From a bacterium (GTDB lineage Bacteria > RUG730), in assembly GCA_031551405.1 (NCBI GenBank), contig JAVBNQ010000006.1, positions 1-64,000 on the forward strand: a DNA stretch of 64,000 bases, given 5' to 3'. Shown one piece after another: positions 41,456 to 53,194 of the stretch. The notes beneath the pieces are model-generated. The model made no database searches and was not told the DNA's origin. It worked only from the letters and a program-made list of their open reading frames with translations. How positions within the stretch are numbered: position 1 is the stretch's first letter; the number at the start of each line of letters is the position of its first letter. The translations under genes and the position numbers were made by a program.

Positions 41456-42547
41456 GTGAAAATAGGGATAGCAGTGAGTGGTACAGGTGGGCACATTTAT
41501 CCTGGAATTTCAATAGCGCAACTGCTGGATTCACATGGACACAAGATTATTTTTTTTGGAAATACCAGTCTTTTGACACATAATATAATTGATAATTATG
41601 GCTATAATCTCGTGCAAGTAAATATTTCTGGCTGGAAAAATCGAAGTCTTTTGAGTTTTTTAAAATTTTGTTTCTTTTTTTTGTTCGCTTTTTTAAAATC
41701 GATTTTTTATATTTTACGATATAAAATTAATATTATAATTGGGATGGGTGGATATCTTGAAATTCCAATTGTCTTGGCTGCGAAAATTTTGGGCAAAAAA
41801 ACGATTATTCACGAGCAGAATTTTTTTCCAGGACTTGCGAATAAATGTTTGAATTTGATCAGTGACAAAACCGCGCTTGGATTTGACGAGAGCAGGAAAT
41901 ATTTCCATCGAAAAGTTAGAGCAGTTTTTACCGGAAATCCAATAAGGAAAGAGTTTTATAATTTACAGCAAATCGACAAAAAAACTGCAAAACAAAACTT
42001 GAATATTTCCAAAAATTTGAAAGTAATTTTGATTTTCGGTGGTAGTCAAGGGGCGTCTTTTTTGAATACTACTATTCTCGACGCGATAAAATTTCTTGAT
42101 AGAAGGGACGAATTGTTTTTTATCCACATTACCGGCGAAAAAGATCTTGCAAGTGTAAAAAAATTTTATAATGAAAACAAACTTAAAAGCCAGGTATCGT
42201 CTTATTATTACGATATTTTTAACTTGTATTTCGCAGCGGATTTGGTGATTTCAAGGGCGGGCGCTTCGACAATCACAGAACTACTAGTTACAAAAACCCC
42301 AAACATTTTGATTCCATATCCTTTTGCGACTGAAGATCATCAAACTAAAAATGCAGAATTTTTAAAACAATTCGGTTTCTCCGAAATCTATCAAGAAAAA
42401 AATTTCGATAAAGATAAATTTTGCGATTCGGTTTTGAAATTTTTATCACCAACTTTTTCAATAAAAAACAATGTGAATTTTGAAAAGTATCGAAATTTAA
42501 AATTTGACGAAAACTTATACAATCTTATCAAAGATTTGAAAAAATGA
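41456..42547 (+). CDS. murG: UDP-GlcNAc:lipid I N-acetylglucosaminyltransferase
   Basis: GTGGHIYPG, GMGGY, HEQN..PGLAN, TGNPIR, GGSQGA, SRAGASTITE, HQTKNA. Confidence 0.95.
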   Translation: MKIGIAVSGTGGHIYPGISIAQLLDSHGHKIIFFGNTSLLTHNIIDNYGYNLVQVNISGWKNRSLLSFLKFCFFFLFAFLKSIFYILRYKINIIIGMGGYLEIPIVLAAKILGKKTIIHEQNFFPGLANKCLNLISDKTALGFDESRKYFHRKVRAVFTGNPIRKEFYNLQQIDKKTAKQNLNISKNLKVILIFGGSQGASFLNTTILDAIKFLDRRDELFFIHITGEKDLASVKKFYNENKLKSQVSSYYYDIFNLYFAADLVISRAGASTITELLVTKTPNILIPYPFATEDHQTKNAEFLKQFGFSEIYQEKNFDKDKFCDSVLKFLSPTFSIKNNVNFEKYRNLKFDENLYNLIKDLKK

Positions 42548-44051: not shown

Positions 44052-45012
44052 GCTGATTTATCTTTTACTTGGACAAAACGAACACGCAAAATCTCTTGAA
44101 ATCGAAAAAATCAAAGGCTCTGTCTTGGGAAAAAATGTTACTGAGTTCAATTACGACCTTTTGTACGCCGACGAGAATGAACCAAAAAACGTGATAAATT
44201 TGTGTAATACTTTGGCTTTTTGTAGCGACGTAAGGCTGGTAATTTTGAAGCGTTTTGAGTCGTATTCCGCCAAAGAAAAAAGCGTTTTAGCAGAATATTC
44301 CAAAGATGCATCTCCTCAAACGTGTCTTGTGATTTCCGGAGGAGAAAAACCTGCGAAAAATGAGGCTTGGTATAAAACTTTCGATGTGAATCAAGCTTCA
44401 ACTCATATCAGCGTTTTTTGGCCGTACAATTACAAGATGCTGACTCAGATAATTTTGTCTAGTTTCGAAAAATTGGGTAAAAATATTGATTACAATGCAG
44501 CGAGCGTTCTTGCGGAATTGATAGAAAACAACCCAAATTCTATAGATGAAGAAATAAAAAAAATTATAAATTATGTTGATGAAAAAAATAACGTAACTTT
44601 AGATGACATAAAAGAAAATGTCCTGAAAAGCCAAAATCACGATATTTACGAATGGGCGATAAAAATTACTGATGGAAAAACCGTAGAAGCATTAAAATTT
44701 TTGAACAATTTTTCTCCTACCGAATTGAAAGCCCCGCAATTACTTTTGTTTGTTTTGACTGAAAGATTCACTAAAATTTTTAAATATTTGACTCTTTTGA
44801 GTGAAGGTGTACAATCGCAAACTGCGCAAAAATCTCTTGGGGTTATGTTGTTTTTGGATCCAAAATTTGCAGCTCAGGCAACGAGATATGATTTTAAAAA
44901 ATTGGCTAAAATATTCGATTTGCTAATAAATGTCGACGCTAACATAAAAGTTGGAAAAGGAGAACCAAAATTTTTGCTAGAGGAACTTATCGTGGATATT
45001 TCGCGGCTCTGA
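44032..45012 (+). CDS. holA: DNA polymerase III delta subunit
   Basis: YLLLG, FNYDLLY, RLVIL, EIKKI, D..IK.G C-terminal pattern; size 326 aa. Confidence 0.82.
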   Translation: MQNAKFKLIYLLLGQNEHAKSLEIEKIKGSVLGKNVTEFNYDLLYADENEPKNVINLCNTLAFCSDVRLVILKRFESYSAKEKSVLAEYSKDASPQTCLVISGGEKPAKNEAWYKTFDVNQASTHISVFWPYNYKMLTQIILSSFEKLGKNIDYNAASVLAELIENNPNSIDEEIKKIINYVDEKNNVTLDDIKENVLKSQNHDIYEWAIKITDGKTVEALKFLNNFSPTELKAPQLLLFVLTERFTKIFKYLTLLSEGVQSQTAQKSLGVMLFLDPKFAAQATRYDFKKLAKIFDLLINVDANIKVGKGEPKFLLEELIVDISRL

Positions 45013-45047
45013 GATAAAAAATAAATGAAAATTAACAGGAAGTTTAG

Positions 45048-45395
45048 ATGAGAACAAATAGGAAAGAAAGGCTCTCTGGGCTTATTAAAGAAAAAATCAG
45101 CGAAATTATGATGCATGTTTTAGATGAGTTTTCGGGATTTTTGATAAGTTTTACAGATGTGAAAGTTGCAAAAGATTTTATGAATGTGACGATTTTTTAC
45201 AGTATTTTTGGAAATGAGGACGATAGAAAAAGACTGGAAAAGTTGTTTATGAAATACAAATCAAGGATCAGGTTTGAGCTCGGGAATAGGATAAATTTTA
45301 GGATGGTTCCGAATTTTCATTTTAAGTACGACGAGACCATGGAAAAGGCATCAAGAATAGAAAATCTTTTGCAAGGGATGAAATTAGATGAGTAG
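45048..45395 (+). CDS. rbfA: 30S ribosome-binding factor A
   Basis: RKERLSGLIKEKIS, TDVKVAKD, VPNFHFKYDET. Confidence 0.88.
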   Translation: MRTNRKERLSGLIKEKISEIMMHVLDEFSGFLISFTDVKVAKDFMNVTIFYSIFGNEDDRKRLEKLFMKYKSRIRFELGNRINFRMVPNFHFKYDETMEKASRIENLLQGMKLDE

Positions 45396-46407
45396 AGAAA
45401 AATTAGCTGACACGTTCGAGGAAATCAAGGGCGTAGTTTTGGATCCTGACAACAAAAATTTTTTGTTGCTTTTTCATTCAAATCCAGATGGAGATGCGAT
45501 CGGTTCAGCTCTTGGCGCAAAATTTTTGCTGGAAAAAATGTGGAAACAAAAATACGGAACTGCAATGCTCGGAAAACGAGTTTTTGTTTATTCGAGCGAT
45601 GAATTACCAAAAAAATTTGCTTTTTTGCCGGGCTTTGACGGGATAGTAGTTTCAAAAAATTTGCCGAATGTAGACGTGACGATTGTTATGGAATCTTCCA
45701 GCCTAAATAGAGCAGGTTTTCCATTGCTCAGCTCGAAAACTGTGATAAATATTGATCATCACGTTATAAATGATAATTATGGCGACATAAATTGGGTCGA
45801 TTCGAATAAAGCTGCAGCTTGTCAGATGATTTATGATATTTTGATTTATTTTGGCGTCGAGCTTGATTTCGATATTGCAGTCTGTTTGTACGTTGGAATT
45901 TTGACTGACACCGGTAGATTTCAATACTCCAATACCACGATTGAGATTTACGATATCATAAGAAATTTAGTTGAACAGGGAATAAATGTCAACGAAATTT
46001 TTACGCGAATTTATGGAAGTAAGACTTTAACTCAAGTGAAATTTATGCAAATTGTCTTGCGAAATATAGAATTTTTTTGCGACAATAAAATAATAATTTC
46101 CCACATTGACGAGTCGGATATAGAAGCTTTCGATATAAAATCTGACGACATGGATGGAGCTGTCGAGTATCTTCGAGATATTGAGAATGTCGAAGTTTCT
46201 ATGTTCATAAAACCGCAAATAGACACGTATAAAATTAGTTTTAGGTCAAAAGGAAAGGTGAGATTGAGCGAGCTCGTAAAACTTTATGACGGCGGTGGAC
46301 ACGTTTTTGCTGCCGGCTGCGAGATCAAAAAACAAGATTTAGACGAAGCAAAAAATCGTATTTTGGAAAATTTAAAATCTCAGATTTCAAAAAAATTTCC
46401 GATATAA
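45388..46407 (+). CDS. nrnA: DHH-family bifunctional oligoribonuclease/PAP phosphatase
   Basis: HSNPDGDAIGS, IDHH, TDTGRF, SFRS, GGGHVFAAG; follows rbfA. Confidence 0.88.
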   Translation: MSREKLADTFEEIKGVVLDPDNKNFLLLFHSNPDGDAIGSALGAKFLLEKMWKQKYGTAMLGKRVFVYSSDELPKKFAFLPGFDGIVVSKNLPNVDVTIVMESSSLNRAGFPLLSSKTVINIDHHVINDNYGDINWVDSNKAAACQMIYDILIYFGVELDFDIAVCLYVGILTDTGRFQYSNTTIEIYDIIRNLVEQGINVNEIFTRIYGSKTLTQVKFMQIVLRNIEFFCDNKIIISHIDESDIEAFDIKSDDMDGAVEYLRDIENVEVSMFIKPQIDTYKISFRSKGKVRLSELVKLYDGGGHVFAAGCEIKKQDLDEAKNRILENLKSQISKKFPI

Positions 46408-46431
46408 AAATAATCAAGCGAGGAATGGTTT

Positions 46432-47616
46432 ATGGCAGATTTGTTAGAAAAATGCAGAAAATTCGAGGCAGCAAAACAAGTTTTAGCATCTGGCTGTTAT
46501 CCGTATTTTCATCGAGTGGAATCCGGTCAGGATCCAGAGGTTATCATCGAGGGTAAAAAAATGATAATGGTCGGATCAAACAATTATTTGGGTCTTACGT
46601 CGCATCCAAAAGTCAAAGATGCTGCAAAAAAAGCGATAGAAAAATATGGAGTTGGCTGTGTTGGATCGAGATTTTTAAACGGAACATTGGATTTACATGA
46701 GGAGCTAGAGTTAAAACTTGCGGAATTTTTAAAGCGTGATGTAGCGTTGACTTTTTCGACTGGAATGCAAGCAAACCTCGGAGTGATTTCAGCTCTCGTC
46801 GGGAAGGGTGATGTGGTAATTACGGATAAATACGATCATGCCAGCATTATAGATGGTTGCAAATTGTCTTTTGGCGAGATGAAACGTTTCAAACATAACG
46901 ACATGGAAGACTTGGAAAAAACGCTCAAAGCGATTTCCGGTGATTTCGGGAAATTAATTTTAGTCGACGGCGTTTTTAGCATGGAAGGCGATATAGCGAA
47001 CTTGCCTGAGATTGTCAAACTTGCGAAAAAATATGGAACCAGAGTAATGGTAGATGACGCGCACGGAGTCGGTGTTTTGGGGAAACATGGCCGAGGAACT
47101 GCCGAGTATTTTGGGCTTGAAAAAGAAGTGGATATTTTGGTTGGAACTTTTAGCAAATCGTTTGCCGCAGTCGGAGGATTTGTGGCTGGCGACGAAGATT
47201 TGATTCATTATTTGAAGCATAATTCAAGGGCATTGATTTTTAGCGCTAGTTTGCCGCCGAGCAATGTCGCGTCGGTGATTGCAGCTCTTGAGATAATAAA
47301 ATCAGAACCGGAAAGAATGACGCGTCTTCTCGAGATTGCAGACAAAATGAGATGCGAATTTGTGAAACGAGGTTTTGACGTTGGGACGAGCGAGACACCG
47401 ATTGTGCCGATTTTGATTGGCGACAATATGAAGGCCTTCAAAATGTGGCGTTTGCTCTTCGACAAGGGTATTTTCACTACTCCGGTTGTTAGTCCTGCTG
47501 TTCCAAATAATCGAGCAATGATTCGTACGAGTTATATCGCTACGCAAAAAGACGAGCAATTGGATAAAGTTTTGAATGCTTTCGAGGAAGCTGGGAAAGA
47601 GCTTGGAGTAATCTAG
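46432..47616 (+). CDS. Alpha-oxoamine synthase, probable serine palmitoyltransferase
   Basis: YPYF..VESGQD, GSNNYLGLT, GSRFLNGT, DHASIIDG, FSMEGD, DDAHG, GTFSKS (PLP lysine). Confidence 0.8.
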   Translation: MADLLEKCRKFEAAKQVLASGCYPYFHRVESGQDPEVIIEGKKMIMVGSNNYLGLTSHPKVKDAAKKAIEKYGVGCVGSRFLNGTLDLHEELELKLAEFLKRDVALTFSTGMQANLGVISALVGKGDVVITDKYDHASIIDGCKLSFGEMKRFKHNDMEDLEKTLKAISGDFGKLILVDGVFSMEGDIANLPEIVKLAKKYGTRVMVDDAHGVGVLGKHGRGTAEYFGLEKEVDILVGTFSKSFAAVGGFVAGDEDLIHYLKHNSRALIFSASLPPSNVASVIAALEIIKSEPERMTRLLEIADKMRCEFVKRGFDVGTSETPIVPILIGDNMKAFKMWRLLFDKGIFTTPVVSPAVPNNRAMIRTSYIATQKDEQLDKVLNAFEEAGKELGVI

Positions 47617-47620
47617 CAAG

Positions 47621-48736
47621 ATGTCAAATCTCAAAATAATCGAAGTAAAATCGAATAAAGATTTGGATCTCTTCGTGAGTTTCCCTTGGCAAATCTATAA
47701 AAACTTTGAAAATTGGGTTCCGCCTTTAAAAAGCGAGATTAAAAACATTTTCGCTGATAAAAATCCGTTTTGGCGGCATTCCGAAAAAAAACTTTTTTTG
47801 CTTTTTGACAACGGAAAAATCGTTGGGAGAATAGCCGGGATTATTGATTACAATTATATAAAATTTCAGGATGAAAACGCTGGTTTTTTTGGATTTTTCG
47901 AATGCGAAAATAATTTGGAATACGCGAGCCATTTGGTTAGAGCAGTTCAAGATTGGCTTAGTGCGAATAAAATTCGAATTATTTACGGACCGATGAATCC
48001 TTCGACAAACGACGAGATGGGATTTTTGTTCGAAGGTGAAGGCGATCCTTTCATCATGATGCCGTATAATCCGAGTTACTACCTCGAGCTTTTTGAGAAT
48101 CTCGGCTTCGAGAAAGCGAGAGATTTGTATGCTTATAATTTGGATTACAAGAACACGCCATTCAAACGGTTAAATTTTTTGCGAGACAAATTACTCGAAA
48201 AATTTAAATATAAAAACGTCAAAGTTCGCTCGATAAATTTGAAAAATTTAGATCATGAGATCGAGTTTGCGCTTGATGTCTACAACGATGCTTGGGAGAA
48301 AAATTGGGGATTTGTGCCGTGGAACAGTGAGGAATTTTATAGCGTCGCGAAAATGCTGAAAAATTTAGCTGATCCAAGGATGATTTTGTTTCTTGAGATA
48401 GATTCTAAGCCAGCCGGAATGCTGATCGTGATCCCCGACTACAATCAAGTCATGAAAAAATTAAACGGCAAGCTAAATATCCTGAAGTTTTTGTGGTATA
48501 AACGCAAAATCACTAGGGCGCGGCTTTTGATACTGGGCGTGAAGAAAGAATTTAGGAAGCAAGGTTTTGAAAGTCTCCTCTATCTGACTGCAGCTGAGAA
48601 TGTTAGAGAAACAGGAATACGAAATTTTGAGTTTTCTTGGATTTTGGAAGATAATGTTTTGACGTGCAGGGCAGCTGAGATGATGGGTGGTGAACTTTAC
48701 AGGAAGTATAGAGTTTTTCGGAAGGATAATTTTTAG
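47621..48736 (+). CDS. GNAT-fold acyltransferase, YghO/bacterial ceramide synthase-like
   Basis: FPWQIY..WVPPL, VGRIAG, GFFGFFE, GPMNPSTNDEMG, MPYNP.YY, WEKNWGFVP, PDYNQ, FSWILEDN. Confidence 0.72.
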   Translation: MSNLKIIEVKSNKDLDLFVSFPWQIYKNFENWVPPLKSEIKNIFADKNPFWRHSEKKLFLLFDNGKIVGRIAGIIDYNYIKFQDENAGFFGFFECENNLEYASHLVRAVQDWLSANKIRIIYGPMNPSTNDEMGFLFEGEGDPFIMMPYNPSYYLELFENLGFEKARDLYAYNLDYKNTPFKRLNFLRDKLLEKFKYKNVKVRSINLKNLDHEIEFALDVYNDAWEKNWGFVPWNSEEFYSVAKMLKNLADPRMILFLEIDSKPAGMLIVIPDYNQVMKKLNGKLNILKFLWYKRKITRARLLILGVKKEFRKQGFESLLYLTAAENVRETGIRNFEFSWILEDNVLTCRAAEMMGGELYRKYRVFRKDNF

Positions 48737-48849
48737 AGCCTTTTTTGCAACTCAAAAAGGATAAATTGCGCTTTAAAAGGACATGTTTTTAAAAGTTTTC
48801 AAATAGCGGTCGAAGTGAAAAAAGTTTTGTTTAAGATTGGAGAAAAATT

Positions 48850-50382
48850 ATGATTTTGATTTTAGATTTTGGGTCGCAGTACACACAGCTTATTGCGAGG
48901 AGAGTGAGAGAATTATCGGTTTATTGTGAAATTTTGCCCTACAATACTAATTTTGATGAAATTCGCGCAAAAAATCCGGTTGGAATAATTTTGTCAGGCG
49001 GACCATCAAGCGTTTATGAAAAAAATAGTCCAAGGTGCGACGAGAGAATTTTTGACCTCGAAGTTCCGGTTTTGGGAATTTGTTATGGAAGCCAGCTTTT
49101 GAGTCTGCATTACGGCGGAGAAGTTTTGAAAGCTGAAAAAAGAGAATTTGGTTTTGCTGAGCTCGAGCTGAAGAAAGACGATTTATTTTTAAAAAATTTT
49201 AGTTTGGCAAAAAAAGAAAAAGTTTGGATGAGTCACGGCGACAAGATCACAAATATTTCTGCAAATTTTTTTGTTTTGGCTGAGACGGATAACTCGCCAT
49301 TTGCAATAATAAAACATAACGAAAAAAATCAATACGGCGTTCAATTTCACCCTGAAGTTGCTCACACGGAAAACGGAAAGATTTTTCTAAAGAATTTTGT
49401 TTGCGAAATTTGCAAAGCTGAGCCGAATTGGACGATGAAATCTTTTATTGACGAACAGGTTAAAAATATTCGAGAAATCGTCGGAGACAAAAAAGTGATT
49501 GCCGGGCTTTCAGGAGGAGTTGACTCATCTGTAATGTCTGTTCTGATTCATAGGGCGATAGGCGATAATTTGACTTGTATTTTTGTTGACAACGGGCTTT
49601 TGCGCTATGGTGAACGTGAAAAAATAGAGGAAAGTTTCAGTAAAAAAATGCATCTAAACGTAAAATATATTTCTGCTCAAAAAATATTTTTGGACGCCTT
49701 AAAAGATGTGATTGATCCAGAAAAAAAACGTAAAATTATAGGGCATAAATTTATCGACGTTTTCGACGACGCGAGCAGTAAAATAGAAGGTGTGGAATTT
49801 TTGGCGCAAGGGACGTTGTATCCAGATGTGATTGAGAGCATTTCTGTGAAAGGACCGTCTGCGACGATAAAATCTCATCATAATGTTGGTGGGCTTCCGG
49901 AGAAAATGAAACTAAAGCTTCTCGAGCCGCTCAAATATTTATTTAAAGACGAAGTGCGAAATCTCGGACGAGAGCTAGGAATTCCTGAGGAGCTTGTGAA
50001 CAGGCAGCCTTTTCCTGGACCTGGACTTGCGGTGAGGATTTTGGGAGAAGTTAACGAGGAGCGTACAAATATTTTGCGACAAGCTGATAAAATTGTATTA
50101 GACGAGATCAAGAAATCTGGGCTTTATAACGAGATTTGGCAATCTTTTGCAGTGCTTTTGCCGGTAAAAACTGTTGGAGTGATGGGCGACGAGAGAACGT
50201 ATGAAAACGTGATTGCAGTTCGCGCGGTCAATAGCGTCGACGGAATGACTGCTGATTGGGTGAAATTGCCATACGATCTTTTAGGAAGAATTTCGAATCT
50301 AATCATAAATAACGTCAAAGGCGTGAACAGAGTTTGCTATGATATTTCGTCCAAACCGCCTGCTACAATCGAGTGGGAATAA
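48850..50382 (+). CDS. guaA: GMP synthase (glutamine-hydrolysing)
   Basis: [47 protein letters not shown]. Confidence 0.98.
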
Positions 50383-51101: not shown

Positions 51102-51178
51102 AAATTTTACAAGCGAATTACGGAATTTATAGATTTTTTGGATTGTGCTAGATTTTTGTATTTTTGGTAGATAGATTT

Positions 51179-53194
51179 ATGAAAAAATTTTTTATTACAT
51201 TTTTTACTGTTTTATTTTTTGCGTCGGCACTTTTTTCGAGTATTCAACGTTTTACTCCCGATGCGAGAAATAGCGTTTTGAAAAATGTTGCTTCGTTCGA
51301 TGATGGATTTTATTCGATATACAACCCTAGTTTTCATTCGAAAAATTATGGATTTAGTGCGTCATATGTTCCAATGGAATATGACGAAAATCTAAGCCAC
51401 CTTTTGTTTAATTTCCCTCTAAAAAATTATTTTTTTCAGGCTGATTATTCGCGTTTCTTGAGTCAAGGAATAGAAATTTGGGACAAAGAAGGCGTGTTTG
51501 TAAAAAATAGTGATTACGACGAGTCGCTAATTTCCCTAAATTTGATAAAACAATTCGTTATTAATAATCGAAATTTTGATCTTGGTTTTAGATATCACTA
51601 TAATGAGGCGAGTTTCCTCGACGATCAAATTTATTCGAAAAATTATTTTGACGTCGGGATAAAAACTATTTTGAAAAACGATTTTGCGTTTGGATTTTCA
51701 CTTCTGGAAATTGGCGATGAAGATGAAAAAATAGCTCTTGGTCTTGCAAAAAATTGGATTTTTGATTGGTACGCGTCGATATTTCAGGCAACAAATAAGA
51801 ATGATTTTCAGTATTCGCTGTCTGGAGAGAAAAAGGTTTCGAAAAATTTTAGCGTTTTATTTGGCATCGACGAAGATTTAATATCTAGCGACTCAGATTT
51901 TATGTCCGGAATAAATCTAGGAGCCAGTTTTAATTTCAAAAATTTTGTAATCGAGTATGCATTTTCAAAACGTGGAGAGCTCGGATTTTTGAATTATTTT
52001 ACGTTTAGATACAATTTTGACAGCTTGAATTCGTCGCAGAAAACAGAAAATAAAATAGAAAATGTAGATATGAAAATTGCTGAAACAACTGATACAGAAG
52101 TGAAAAAATACAAGGTAGGAGTTTCGTTTTCCGACGCAAAAGGCTATGGCTCTGATATCCAAGATTTGATAATAAAAAATTTGAAAACGGAAAAAGCTCT
52201 TGATGTTTTGTCTGCTAAAGAATTCGAAAATCTAATGACTGAAGAGACTAATCCACAAGTAATTGATATTTTGATCTCGTACAATCTTATTTCACAAAAG
52301 GATTTTTACACTCTTGAGATTGAGTATTTTGATACTCAAGTGAAAAAAGTTATTTTTCAAAATACGAGCGAGCTTTACCGATTACGAAATATCGCATCTA
52401 ATGTTCGAAAAATGGTGATTGAGTTTCTGGCTGGAAATCAAGATTTGATACTTGACGGCAGATTGGAAAATAATATTGCGGCGTCTTCCCCACCTGAAAT
52501 AGAAGGAACGAGCGGGCAGTCGAGCGGCCAAACAAATGAGCAAGCGAATGTTCAAATCGAACCTGAGACTGAAGATGACGCTCTAAATTATGTTGCTATC
52601 GAGTCAAAAATCGAAAAACTTGAAAATCCAGAAGTTCTCTTAGACGATAAAAACATGCAGGAAAACTTGCAAAATGTAGAAATTGCAAAACCTGAGCAAA
52701 AAGCGATTGTAGAAAATGTCGACGGGAATTATAAAGCGGATGCCCAACCAGAAATTCTTGCAACGCAGGATTTGGGGATTTTCGAGTCTGAACAAAAAGT
52801 AGTTTCTGATGACAAAGCCGAAAAACTTGAAAATTTACAAGTTCTTTTAGATGATAAAAACATGCAGGAAAACTTGCAAAATGTAGAAATTGTAAAACCT
52901 GAGCAAAAAGCGATTGTAGAAAATGTCGACGAGAATTATAAAGCGGATGCTCAACCTGAAATTCTTGCAACGCAAAAATTTGAAATCTTTGAGCCTGAAC
53001 AAAATGTTGTTTCTGCAGACAAAATAGAAGAAAATGGTAACCTTCAGGTCTTCTCAGATGACAAAAGTATAGAAGAAAAAACAGAAAATATAGAAGTTGT
53101 AAATTTTGAGGAAAAATCGTTTACGGAAAATGTCGACGAGAATTACAAGGATCTTGAAACTTATATTGAAAATTTAAAAAAGACAAAAAAGTAA
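51179..53194 (+). CDS. Exported PorV/PorQ-like beta-barrel protein with acidic C-terminal repeats
   Basis: Signal peptide, DAR..., YSIYNPS, FDVGI, LGASFNF..IEYAF..GELG; C-terminal 69-aa repeats. Confidence 0.55.
   Translation: MKKFFITFFTVLFFASALFSSIQRFTPDARNSVLKNVASFDDGFYSIYNPSFHSKNYGFSASYVPMEYDENLSHLLFNFPLKNYFFQADYSRFLSQGIEIWDKEGVFVKNSDYDESLISLNLIKQFVINNRNFDLGFRYHYNEASFLDDQIYSKNYFDVGIKTILKNDFAFGFSLLEIGDEDEKIALGLAKNWIFDWYASIFQATNKNDFQYSLSGEKKVSKNFSVLFGIDEDLISSDSDFMSGINLGASFNFKNFVIEYAFSKRGELGFLNYFTFRYNFDSLNSSQKTENKIENVDMKIAETTDTEVKKYKVGVSFSDAKGYGSDIQDLIIKNLKTEKALDVLSAKEFENLMTEETNPQVIDILISYNLISQKDFYTLEIEYFDTQVKKVIFQNTSELYRLRNIASNVRKMVIEFLAGNQDLILDGRLENNIAASSPPEIEGTSGQSSGQTNEQANVQIEPETEDDALNYVAIESKIEKLENPEVLLDDKNMQENLQNVEIAKPEQKAIVENVDGNYKADAQPEILATQDLGIFESEQKVVSDDKAEKLENLQVLLDDKNMQENLQNVEIVKPEQKAIVENVDENYKADAQPEILATQKFEIFEPEQNVVSADKIEENGNLQVFSDDKSIEEKTENIEVVNFEEKSFTENVDENYKDLETYIENLKKTKK
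52613..53150 (+). repeat. In-frame tandem repeat, 207-bp unit, about 2.6 copies
   Basis: Copies start at 52613, 52820 and (degenerate) 53027; unit EKLENPEVLLDDKNMQENLQNVEIAKPEQKAIVENVDGNYKADAQPEILATQ... Confidence 0.9.

Follow-up and report, generated by a model that had tools for sequence, protein, structure and literature searches.

Can a bacterium with a genome of 1.21 Mb, which also encodes the synthesis of lipopolysaccharide (LPS), make sphingolipids? The question is raised by two neighboring genes on the forward strand of contig JAVBNQ010000006.1 (GenBank assembly GCA_031551405.1; GTDB lineage RUG730), of which positions 1 to 64,000, hereafter the window, were analyzed. The first gene (46432..47616, + strand) encodes a 394-residue pyridoxal 5'-phosphate (PLP)-dependent alpha-oxoamine synthase resembling serine palmitoyltransferase (SPT), here called P0001. 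The second (47621..48736, + strand) encodes a 371-residue tandem-GNAT N-acyltransferase, P0002, which is a candidate bacterial ceramide synthase (bCerS). We propose, with a probability of roughly 0.8, that this pair encodes the first two steps of a bacterial ceramide pathway. Both open reading frames (ORFs), their strand and the 4-bp gap between them agree exactly with a first-pass annotation of this DNA, and every motif quoted there occurs in the translations: YPYF...ESGQD, GSNNYLGLT, GSRFLNGT and GTFSKS in the synthase, and WVPPL, GFFGFFE, GPMNPST, MPYNP, NWGFVP and SWILEDN in the acyltransferase.

Relationship of the synthase to serine palmitoyltransferase

P0001 is a fold-type I PLP enzyme (Pfam Aminotran_1_2, E 2e-62), and sequence comparison places it closest to a characterized SPT. 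A phmmer search of the PDB returned the SPT of Sphingobacterium multivorum (SmSPT; 3A2B, 8GUH) as the best match at 434 bits, followed by a BioF/Kbl-type enzyme (324 bits), Sphingomonas SPTs (295-304 bits), Kbl (277 bits), two cysteate acyltransferases (258 and 242 bits), BioF (206 bits) and ALAS (184 bits). Among NCBIfam models, NF047600, which represents the Bacteroidota-type SPT, scored best at 551.1 bits, 116 bits ahead of the next model (TIGR01825, 435 bits). The Kbl model NF005394 (415 bits, cut-off 460) and the BioF model TIGR00858 (401 bits, cut-off 426) both stayed under their cut-offs, 136 and 150 bits below the SPT model, respectively. Identity to a Sphingomonas SPT was 42% (E 8e-99), and the alphaproteobacterial SPT model NF047603 reached only 349 bits. 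P0001 appears to be SPT-like of the Bacteroidota type rather than the alphaproteobacterial type, and the scores favor the first-pass choice of SPT over BioF or Kbl.

The likeness extends to the active site. P0001 and SmSPT align without a gap over residues 4-386, and while about half of the aligned residues differ, 13 of the 14 named active-site residues of SmSPT (residue list from PMC10196870, Asn117 from PMC13692747, both in partial text) are identical. These are N52, G80, S81, N117, H138, S185, D210, A212, H213, T241, S243, K244 and F272, corresponding to N50, G78, S79, N115, H136, S183, D208, A210, H211, T239, S241, K242 and F270 of P0001. The exception is Met271, a main-chain contact, which is replaced by isoleucine (I269). 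The Schiff-base lysine K242 and the PLP ligands H136, D208 and H211 of P0001 thus align to K244, H138, D210 and H213 of SmSPT. P0001 otherwise shares the catalytic and serine-binding residues of that enzyme, and its own SPT activity is a predicted one.

The source genome (14 contigs, scored 100% complete; the window corresponds to contig C3) contains three alpha-oxoamine synthase paralogues, namely P0001 and one copy each on contigs C2 and C11. On C2, the paralogue is BioF, with 426 bits on the bioF model, and a biotin-synthase-like gene (bioB) adjoins it; there is no bio or tdh gene near the pair itself, as had been stated in the first-pass annotation. The C11 copy (L002:1237-2670, C11 at about 149.6-151.0 kb, 477 residues) is ambiguous, scoring 450 bits on the SPT model and 445 bits on TIGR01825. 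It carries an N-terminal extension of roughly 100 residues that has no Pfam match, and its gene is followed directly by ORFs with a HisKA_7TM sensor-type membrane region. A PilZ domain, as found fused to some GNATs, was considered for this extension and ruled out, there being neither BLASTP similarity nor a Pfam match. In a maximum-likelihood tree of 66 synthase rows (IQ-TREE; HemA and alphaproteobacterial SPT rows not included), P0001 fell within a 60-row group together with GNAT-adjacent synthases and three Bacteroidota SPTs that exceed the curated cut-off, while E. coli Kbl, E. coli BioF, the BioF of this genome and the C11 paralogue lay outside that group.

Synthases that resemble SPT and score below the 640-bit equivalog cut-off of NF047600 are common in Bacteroidota. 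In a sample of 251 genomes of that phylum around G009, this model matched at E<=1e-140 in 144 genomes, only 9 of which were above the cut-off. A profile of the GNAT matched 240 of the 251 at E<=1e-20, and for 19 of the 20 best GNAT matches a synthase directly adjoined. All nine genomes with an over-cut-off SPT had a GNAT match at E<=1e-80; adjacency was visible in four of them among the matches listed (G473, G009, G441 and G429), and of the other five, G353, G309, G477 and G373 had weaker GNAT matches (E-82 to E-89) and G377 had a best match of 8e-141. Three GNAT-adjacent Bacteroidota synthases from below the cut-off had SmSPT as their best PDB match (396, 429 and 414 bits), whereas the cysteate enzyme scored 250 bits in one of the three lists and did not appear in the remaining two (E<=1e-70). 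It follows that these three are SPT-like and not enzymes of sulfonolipid synthesis, and an identity of the Bacteroidota module synthases as cysteate acyltransferases was ruled out by the PDB scores. With its 434 bits, P0001 behaves like these sub-cut-off module synthases.

These comparisons bear on another interpretation of the gene pair, in which P0001 would act as a cysteate fatty acyltransferase and P0002 would turn capnine into a sulfobacin-type lipid by N-acylation. Cysteate acyltransferases are SPT-related alpha-oxoamine synthases themselves (PMC13692747, partial text), and Bacteroidota, the phylum where sulfonolipids are known, very commonly have the synthase-GNAT pair. However, both solved cysteate acyltransferases score far below SmSPT with P0001, and the cysteate enzyme likewise stays at or below 250 bits with the three Bacteroidota module synthases, for which SPT is best. 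Furthermore, P0001 keeps the Gly-Ser pair (residues 78-79) and Asn115, whereas the Capnocytophaga enzyme, as described in the available part of PMC13692747, has Gly81-Ala82 and is without the Asn117 feature. A sulfonolipid pair is therefore very improbable, and we continue with P0001 as a putative SPT.

The acyltransferase and its linkage to synthases

Homology places P0002 in the bCerS/YghO family, a relationship that standard annotation does little to reveal. Pfam recognizes Acetyltransf_1 in residues 226-355 only (E 7e-8), no NCBIfam model matched P0002, and PDB searches with it, by sequence as well as by profile, yielded nothing beyond weak C-terminal GNAT matches. The family is large: an exhaustive HMMER search recovered 7225 cluster representatives at E<=1e-3, of which 1127 remained at E<=1e-30. 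Among the names seen, those given to its members in databases were generic ("hypothetical," "GNAT family N-acetyltransferase") or wrong, and the homologue P0043 belongs to generic "N-acetyltransferase" clusters only in the ESM Atlas. In Roseomonas marmotae (NZ_CP061095.1; L108:8986-10137) and other Roseomonas, the bCerS-family gene bears the label "dATP pyrophosphohydrolase," apparently a misannotation that has spread between records. An AlphaFold2 model of P0002 built on 65 homologues (predicted local distance difference test score, pLDDT, 96.2; predicted template modelling score, pTM, 0.92) has a tandem-GNAT fold. Foldseek matched this model best to tandem-GNAT proteins, at E ~1e-13, a template modelling (TM) score of ~0.6 and ~11-14% identity; these are MAB_4324, a tandem GNAT of the clavulanate pathway, a clostridial glucosamine N-acetyltransferase and MshD. 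The model speaks to the predicted fold of P0002 and not to its function.

The connection to ceramide synthesis comes instead from gene order around homologues. A tblastn search of a plasmid collection with P0002 matched 47 records. On the Sphingomonas parapaucimobilis record NZ_CP155753.1, the order of genes is NAD(P)H-binding protein, acyl carrier protein (ACP), class I/II aminotransferase, ATP-binding protein, lptF, lptG, desaturase and N-acetyltransferase. The aminotransferase is the crystallized S. paucimobilis SPT (PDB 2jg2, 907 bits, full length). The N-acetyltransferase, which occupies the cerS position, is 29% identical to P0002 over residues 3-369 (BLASTP, E 1e-56) and has the motifs WVPPLK, NWGF[VI]P and W[IV]L[ED]DN in common with it. 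This gene order matches the Caulobacter layout CC_1165-CC_1154, in which CC_1164 is cerR, CC_1163 acpR, CC_1162 spt, CC_1156 and CC_1155 lptF2 and lptG2, and CC_1154 the N-acyltransferase gene cerS (PMC11324152, partial text).

Similar arrangements occur in other lineages. In Roseomonas, the P0002-family gene follows two LptF/LptG permease genes, and gene pairs for ACP and synthase and for ligase and epimerase lie nearby, while a Streptomyces plasmid has the order synthase, GNAT, epimerase. The E. coli protein YghO shares 31% identity with P0002 over 98% of its length, and on NZ_MG591698.1 (L107, 2343-10122) the neighbors of yghO encode a fatty acyl-AMP ligase, an epimerase-type short-chain dehydrogenase/reductase (SDR), an ACP and an alpha-oxoamine synthase, with an extra lptF/lptG. 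The E. coli yghO gene set is that of the Caulobacter ceramide cluster. The presence of a full-length homologue at the cerS position in the sphingolipid-type clusters of Sphingomonas, Roseomonas and E. coli is in keeping with the first-pass description of P0002 as a ceramide-synthase-like GNAT.

Adjacency and gene fusions support a functional link between the synthase and the GNAT. The predicted proteins P0215 (780 residues) and P0227 (777 residues) each consist of an alpha-oxoamine synthase followed by a GNAT of the P0002 family, and their synthase halves score best on the SPT model (470 and 539 bits, respectively). In a third fusion, P0188 (940 residues), a P0002-family GNAT precedes a fatty acyl-AMP ligase. 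Two further proteins of the family, P0166 and P0225, have an N-terminal PilZ domain, which hints at control of the acyltransferase by cyclic di-GMP (c-di-GMP) in some lineages.

Synteny was assessed in a scan of one genome per species that recovered more than 600 P0002 relatives, and the counts given here come from the best 80 loci. These span more than 15 named phyla, among them Zixibacteria, Acidobacteriota, Planctomycetota, Bdellovibrionota, Gemmatimonadota, Bacteroidota, Elusimicrobiota, Spirochaetota and Cloacimonadota. A P0001-like synthase was detected at E<=1e-20 in 54 of the 80 loci and was adjacent to the GNAT gene (same strand, at most 400 bp away) in 48, upstream in 43 cases and downstream in 5; where at least 1.4 kb of sequence was available on both sides (n=64), it was adjacent in 42. 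NF047600 was the best model for 43 of 44 GNAT-adjacent synthases scanned (465-702 bits; one truncated cluster member was left out), and the remaining one had no model match at E<=1e-125. Only a single synthase of the 44 (L076, Cyclobacteriaceae) exceeded the cut-off of this model, with the other 43 below it. Two further partners recur, an extended epimerase-type SDR (28 loci by ORF clustering, 37 of 80 by tblastn with the copy from this genome) and a PAP2_3 membrane protein (18 of 80). One locus, L032, came from a genome labelled "Sulfitobacter"; the alphaproteobacterial SPT model matched in 0 of 238 genomes of the class of that genome, and the true class may differ from what the label implies.

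The fusion and synteny data contradict the simplest alternative, that the two genes are chance neighbors, a Kbl-type glycine C-acetyltransferase or a spare BioF next to an unrelated small-molecule acetyltransferase. That view draws on the position of the pair amid unrelated housekeeping genes and on the lack of an NCBIfam name for P0002, whose homologues bear generic names. Yet many phyla contribute to the 48 of 80 loci that show adjacency, and the two proteins can be fused; in this genome, moreover, BioF is already accounted for beside bioB, P0001 stays under the Kbl cut-off (415 against 460 bits), and no tdh gene is nearby. We regard a chance association as highly unlikely and retain the predicted functional pairing of an SPT-like synthase with a bCerS-like acyltransferase.

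Candidate reductase, possible head group and probable acyl donors

If the pair supplies the first two steps of ceramide synthesis, a reductase would be expected, and the first-pass annotation had suggested looking for it in the rest of the genome. An extended-SDR homologue of the cerR-position gene is present on contig C5, outside the window. This candidate CerR (G000:C5:47860-48837, 329 residues, where G000 is the source genome) is the sole good match to a module-associated SDR query, at 117 bits against 27 for the next. With SDRs whose genes accompany the module in other phyla it shares 31-38% identity (best E 3e-73), and with the product of the Sphingomonas cerR-position gene, which lies directly upstream of the ACP and spt genes, 25% over its full length (E 8e-32).

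One protein in the genome matched a module-associated PAP2_3 query. This membrane protein is encoded on contig C6 (L094:1459-2343), between an LpxD-domain gene and a gene for a bacterial sugar transferase, and is 29% identical to a neighbor of the module in Latescibacterota (E 2e-45). Possible roles for it are transfer of the head group to ceramide or dephosphorylation of lipid A.

A search for AMP-binding enzymes (PF00501, acyl-CoA/acyl-ACP synthetase) at E<=1e-10 found none in this genome. Since no acyl-CoA/AMP ligase was found, the acyl donors of both reactions would probably be acyl-ACP from fatty-acid synthesis. There are two ORFs with a PP-binding match, a strong AcpP-like one on C1 and a weak one on C11 (L104:1438-1728, at about 101.8 kb; 96 residues, 21.3 bits). 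The latter is followed by a 228-residue ORF without a Pfam match and a FabG-like SDR gene, and the C11 ORF and its neighbors may form a dedicated ACP system.

From the fold, the catalytic residues, the membership of the three proteins in their families and the linkage and fusion of the genes, and with substrates and products taken from the characterized systems, the following pathway can be proposed. P0001 would catalyze the condensation of a long-chain acyl thioester with an amino acid, most probably L-serine, to 3-ketodihydrosphingosine, with release of CO2. P0002 would then N-acylate the 3-keto base in the cytoplasm to an oxo-ceramide, a chemistry suggested by the Caulobacter enzyme, and the C5 SDR would reduce the 3-keto group to yield dihydroceramide. 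The sequence of condensation, N-acylation and reduction is that given in PMC11087976. Finally, and more speculatively, the C6 PAP2_3 protein may add a phospho head group.

A more elaborate system is also conceivable. Both acylations might run on housekeeping acyl-ACP, the resulting (phospho)ceramide might sit beside LPS in the outer membrane, and the C11 paralogue might supply another long-chain amino-ketone that acts in regulation or signaling. We consider this combination rather unlikely. If true, such a minimal, ACP-fed, two-branch sphingoid system would be one not described for bacteria.

Several points weigh against a ceramide pathway. The score of P0001 on NF047600 lies below the equivalog cut-off, and because scores of this order (~500-550 bits) are common in Bacteroidota, such a score alone is no proof of SPT activity. 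The 66-row tree comes from a quick search, in which the branch that holds the SPT-like synthases together had a support of only 81 in the Shimodaira-Hasegawa-like approximate likelihood ratio test (SH-aLRT). We know of no residue set that discriminates serine use from glycine or alanine use. The orthology of P0002 to the Caulobacter bCerS is inferred by way of Sphingomonas, Roseomonas and E. coli orthologues that were themselves assigned by position. E. coli has the same set of genes, and we know of no report of E. coli sphingolipids. The genes for the candidate reductase (C5) and the PAP2_3 protein (C6) are unlinked to the pair. In addition, CerR is reported to be related to NDUFA9 (PMC11087976), while a PDB phmmer search with the C5 SDR (E<=1e-8) listed a sterol dehydrogenase and sugar epimerases and no NDUFA9.

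Some of these points would also suit a pathway of the same architecture in which the synthase uses alanine or glycine, leading to 1-deoxy-type or nor-ceramides. SPTs take L-alanine and glycine at low efficiency (PMC10196870, partial text), (1-deoxy)ceramide backbones are counted among the products of the pathway in the available part of PMC11334938, and P0001 is under the curated SPT cut-off. Conversely, the contacts of the serine hydroxyl network described for SmSPT (N52, G80, the S243 main chain and the PLP phosphate ligands; PMC10196870, partial text) are all identical in P0001, and the 434-bit score of P0001 with SmSPT is as high as those of the Bacteroidota module synthases (396-429 bits). 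Use of alanine or glycine thus seems unlikely, and L-serine is the substrate we would predict for P0001.

Genomic setting and significance

The two genes of the pair are tightly coupled. Their junction (47604..47623, + strand) consists of the stop codon of the synthase gene, a 4-bp spacer (47617-47620) and the ATG of the acyltransferase gene, with a GGAG that lies within the 3' end of the synthase gene and precedes the start codon of the acyltransferase gene by 13 nt. A site scan of 45000-49000 found no terminator-like site between the two genes, and promoter- and terminator-like sites in this interval were no more frequent than in shuffled sequence. In co-directional order, the surrounding genes are murG (41456-42547, PF03033), a GT9 glycosyltransferase gene, lptE, holA, a 115-residue ORF, a DHH/DHHA1 phosphoesterase gene, the pair, guaA and a PIN-domain gene. 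The first-pass annotation had described the pair as embedded in an envelope operon. The upstream murG, GT9 and lptE genes are there as described, but holA, the 115-residue ORF and the phosphoesterase gene intervene and guaA follows the pair; because three unrelated genes separate it from the envelope genes, the arrangement is better described as a long co-directional housekeeping string than as a dedicated envelope operon. Within this string, the P0001 and P0002 genes are probably carried on one transcript. Farther downstream in the window, at 51164-53194 (+ strand), lies a 676-residue ORF whose translation has a signal-like N-terminus and an acidic C-terminal part with near-identical repeats of about 60 residues.

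The closest homologues of P0002 carry the names Elusimicrobiota or Endomicrobiia (46-71% identity). The GTDB phylum of the source genome is represented by seven species genomes in the set searched, and P0002 relatives occur in five of the seven, the source genome included. Two genomes of the same family, G004 and G005, retain the synthase-GNAT pair. In the former (L008, G004:C33), the synthase is 80% identical to P0001 and its gene ends about 650 bp before the GNAT gene, compared with 4 bp in the source genome, owing to an insertion between the two.

In the enzyme families involved, the predicted pathway is like that of Caulobacter and Sphingomonas (Spt; bCerS, CC_1154; CerR, CC_1164; AcpR; AasR), with the same three enzyme families represented, while its genes are organized differently. 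The spt and bcerS genes are 4 bp apart here, whereas in alpha-, beta- and gammaproteobacterial clusters cerS is reported always to belong to another operon (PMC11324152, partial text). Unlike in Caulobacter and Sphingomonas, the reductase gene lies apart from the others, there is no ACP gene beside spt, and no lptF2/lptG2 paralogues adjoin; nor was an AasR-type ligase found in this genome (PF00501, E<=1e-10). The E. coli YghO cluster, with its dedicated ACP and ligase, follows the proteobacterial layout and differs from the present locus in this respect. A further parallel is the "Spt-like" clade B of Ding et al. (2024; PMC11334938, partial text), which comprises distant Spt homologues with nearby bCerS and CerR homologues in metagenome-assembled genomes (MAGs) of 38 phyla from the Black Sea. 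Like the members of that clade, P0001 is an SPT relative that falls outside the narrowly curated SPTs and is recognized by its linkage to bCerS- and CerR-type genes. Cloacimonadota provide the opposite case of an acyltransferase without a nearby synthase, both in the available part of PMC11334938 and at our loci L063 and L078.

For a long time, sphingolipids were believed to occur in only a few groups of bacteria. By now the pathway is known, and predictions of it cover dozens of phyla (the 38 phyla of Black Sea MAGs; PMC11334938, partial text), so that its prediction here extends an established picture. A literature search judged by the titles listed found no paper linking Elusimicrobia to sphingolipid synthesis, and "Elusimicrob" is absent from the main text of PMC11334938. 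What is local to this genome is the tight coupling of spt and bcerS, the unlinked reductase and PAP2_3 genes, the lack of any detected acyl ligase, the second SPT-like paralogue and the very small genome size.

Our data also suggest that curated annotation misses most of the module, given that 9 of the 251 Bacteroidota genomes pass the SPT cut-off whereas 144 of the 251 have an SPT-like synthase. With the pair described here, a small-genome, LPS-encoding, Elusimicrobiota-like lineage would join the predicted producers of ceramide, and the retention of the two genes in a genome of 1.2 Mb suggests that the lipid matters to the envelope of this organism.

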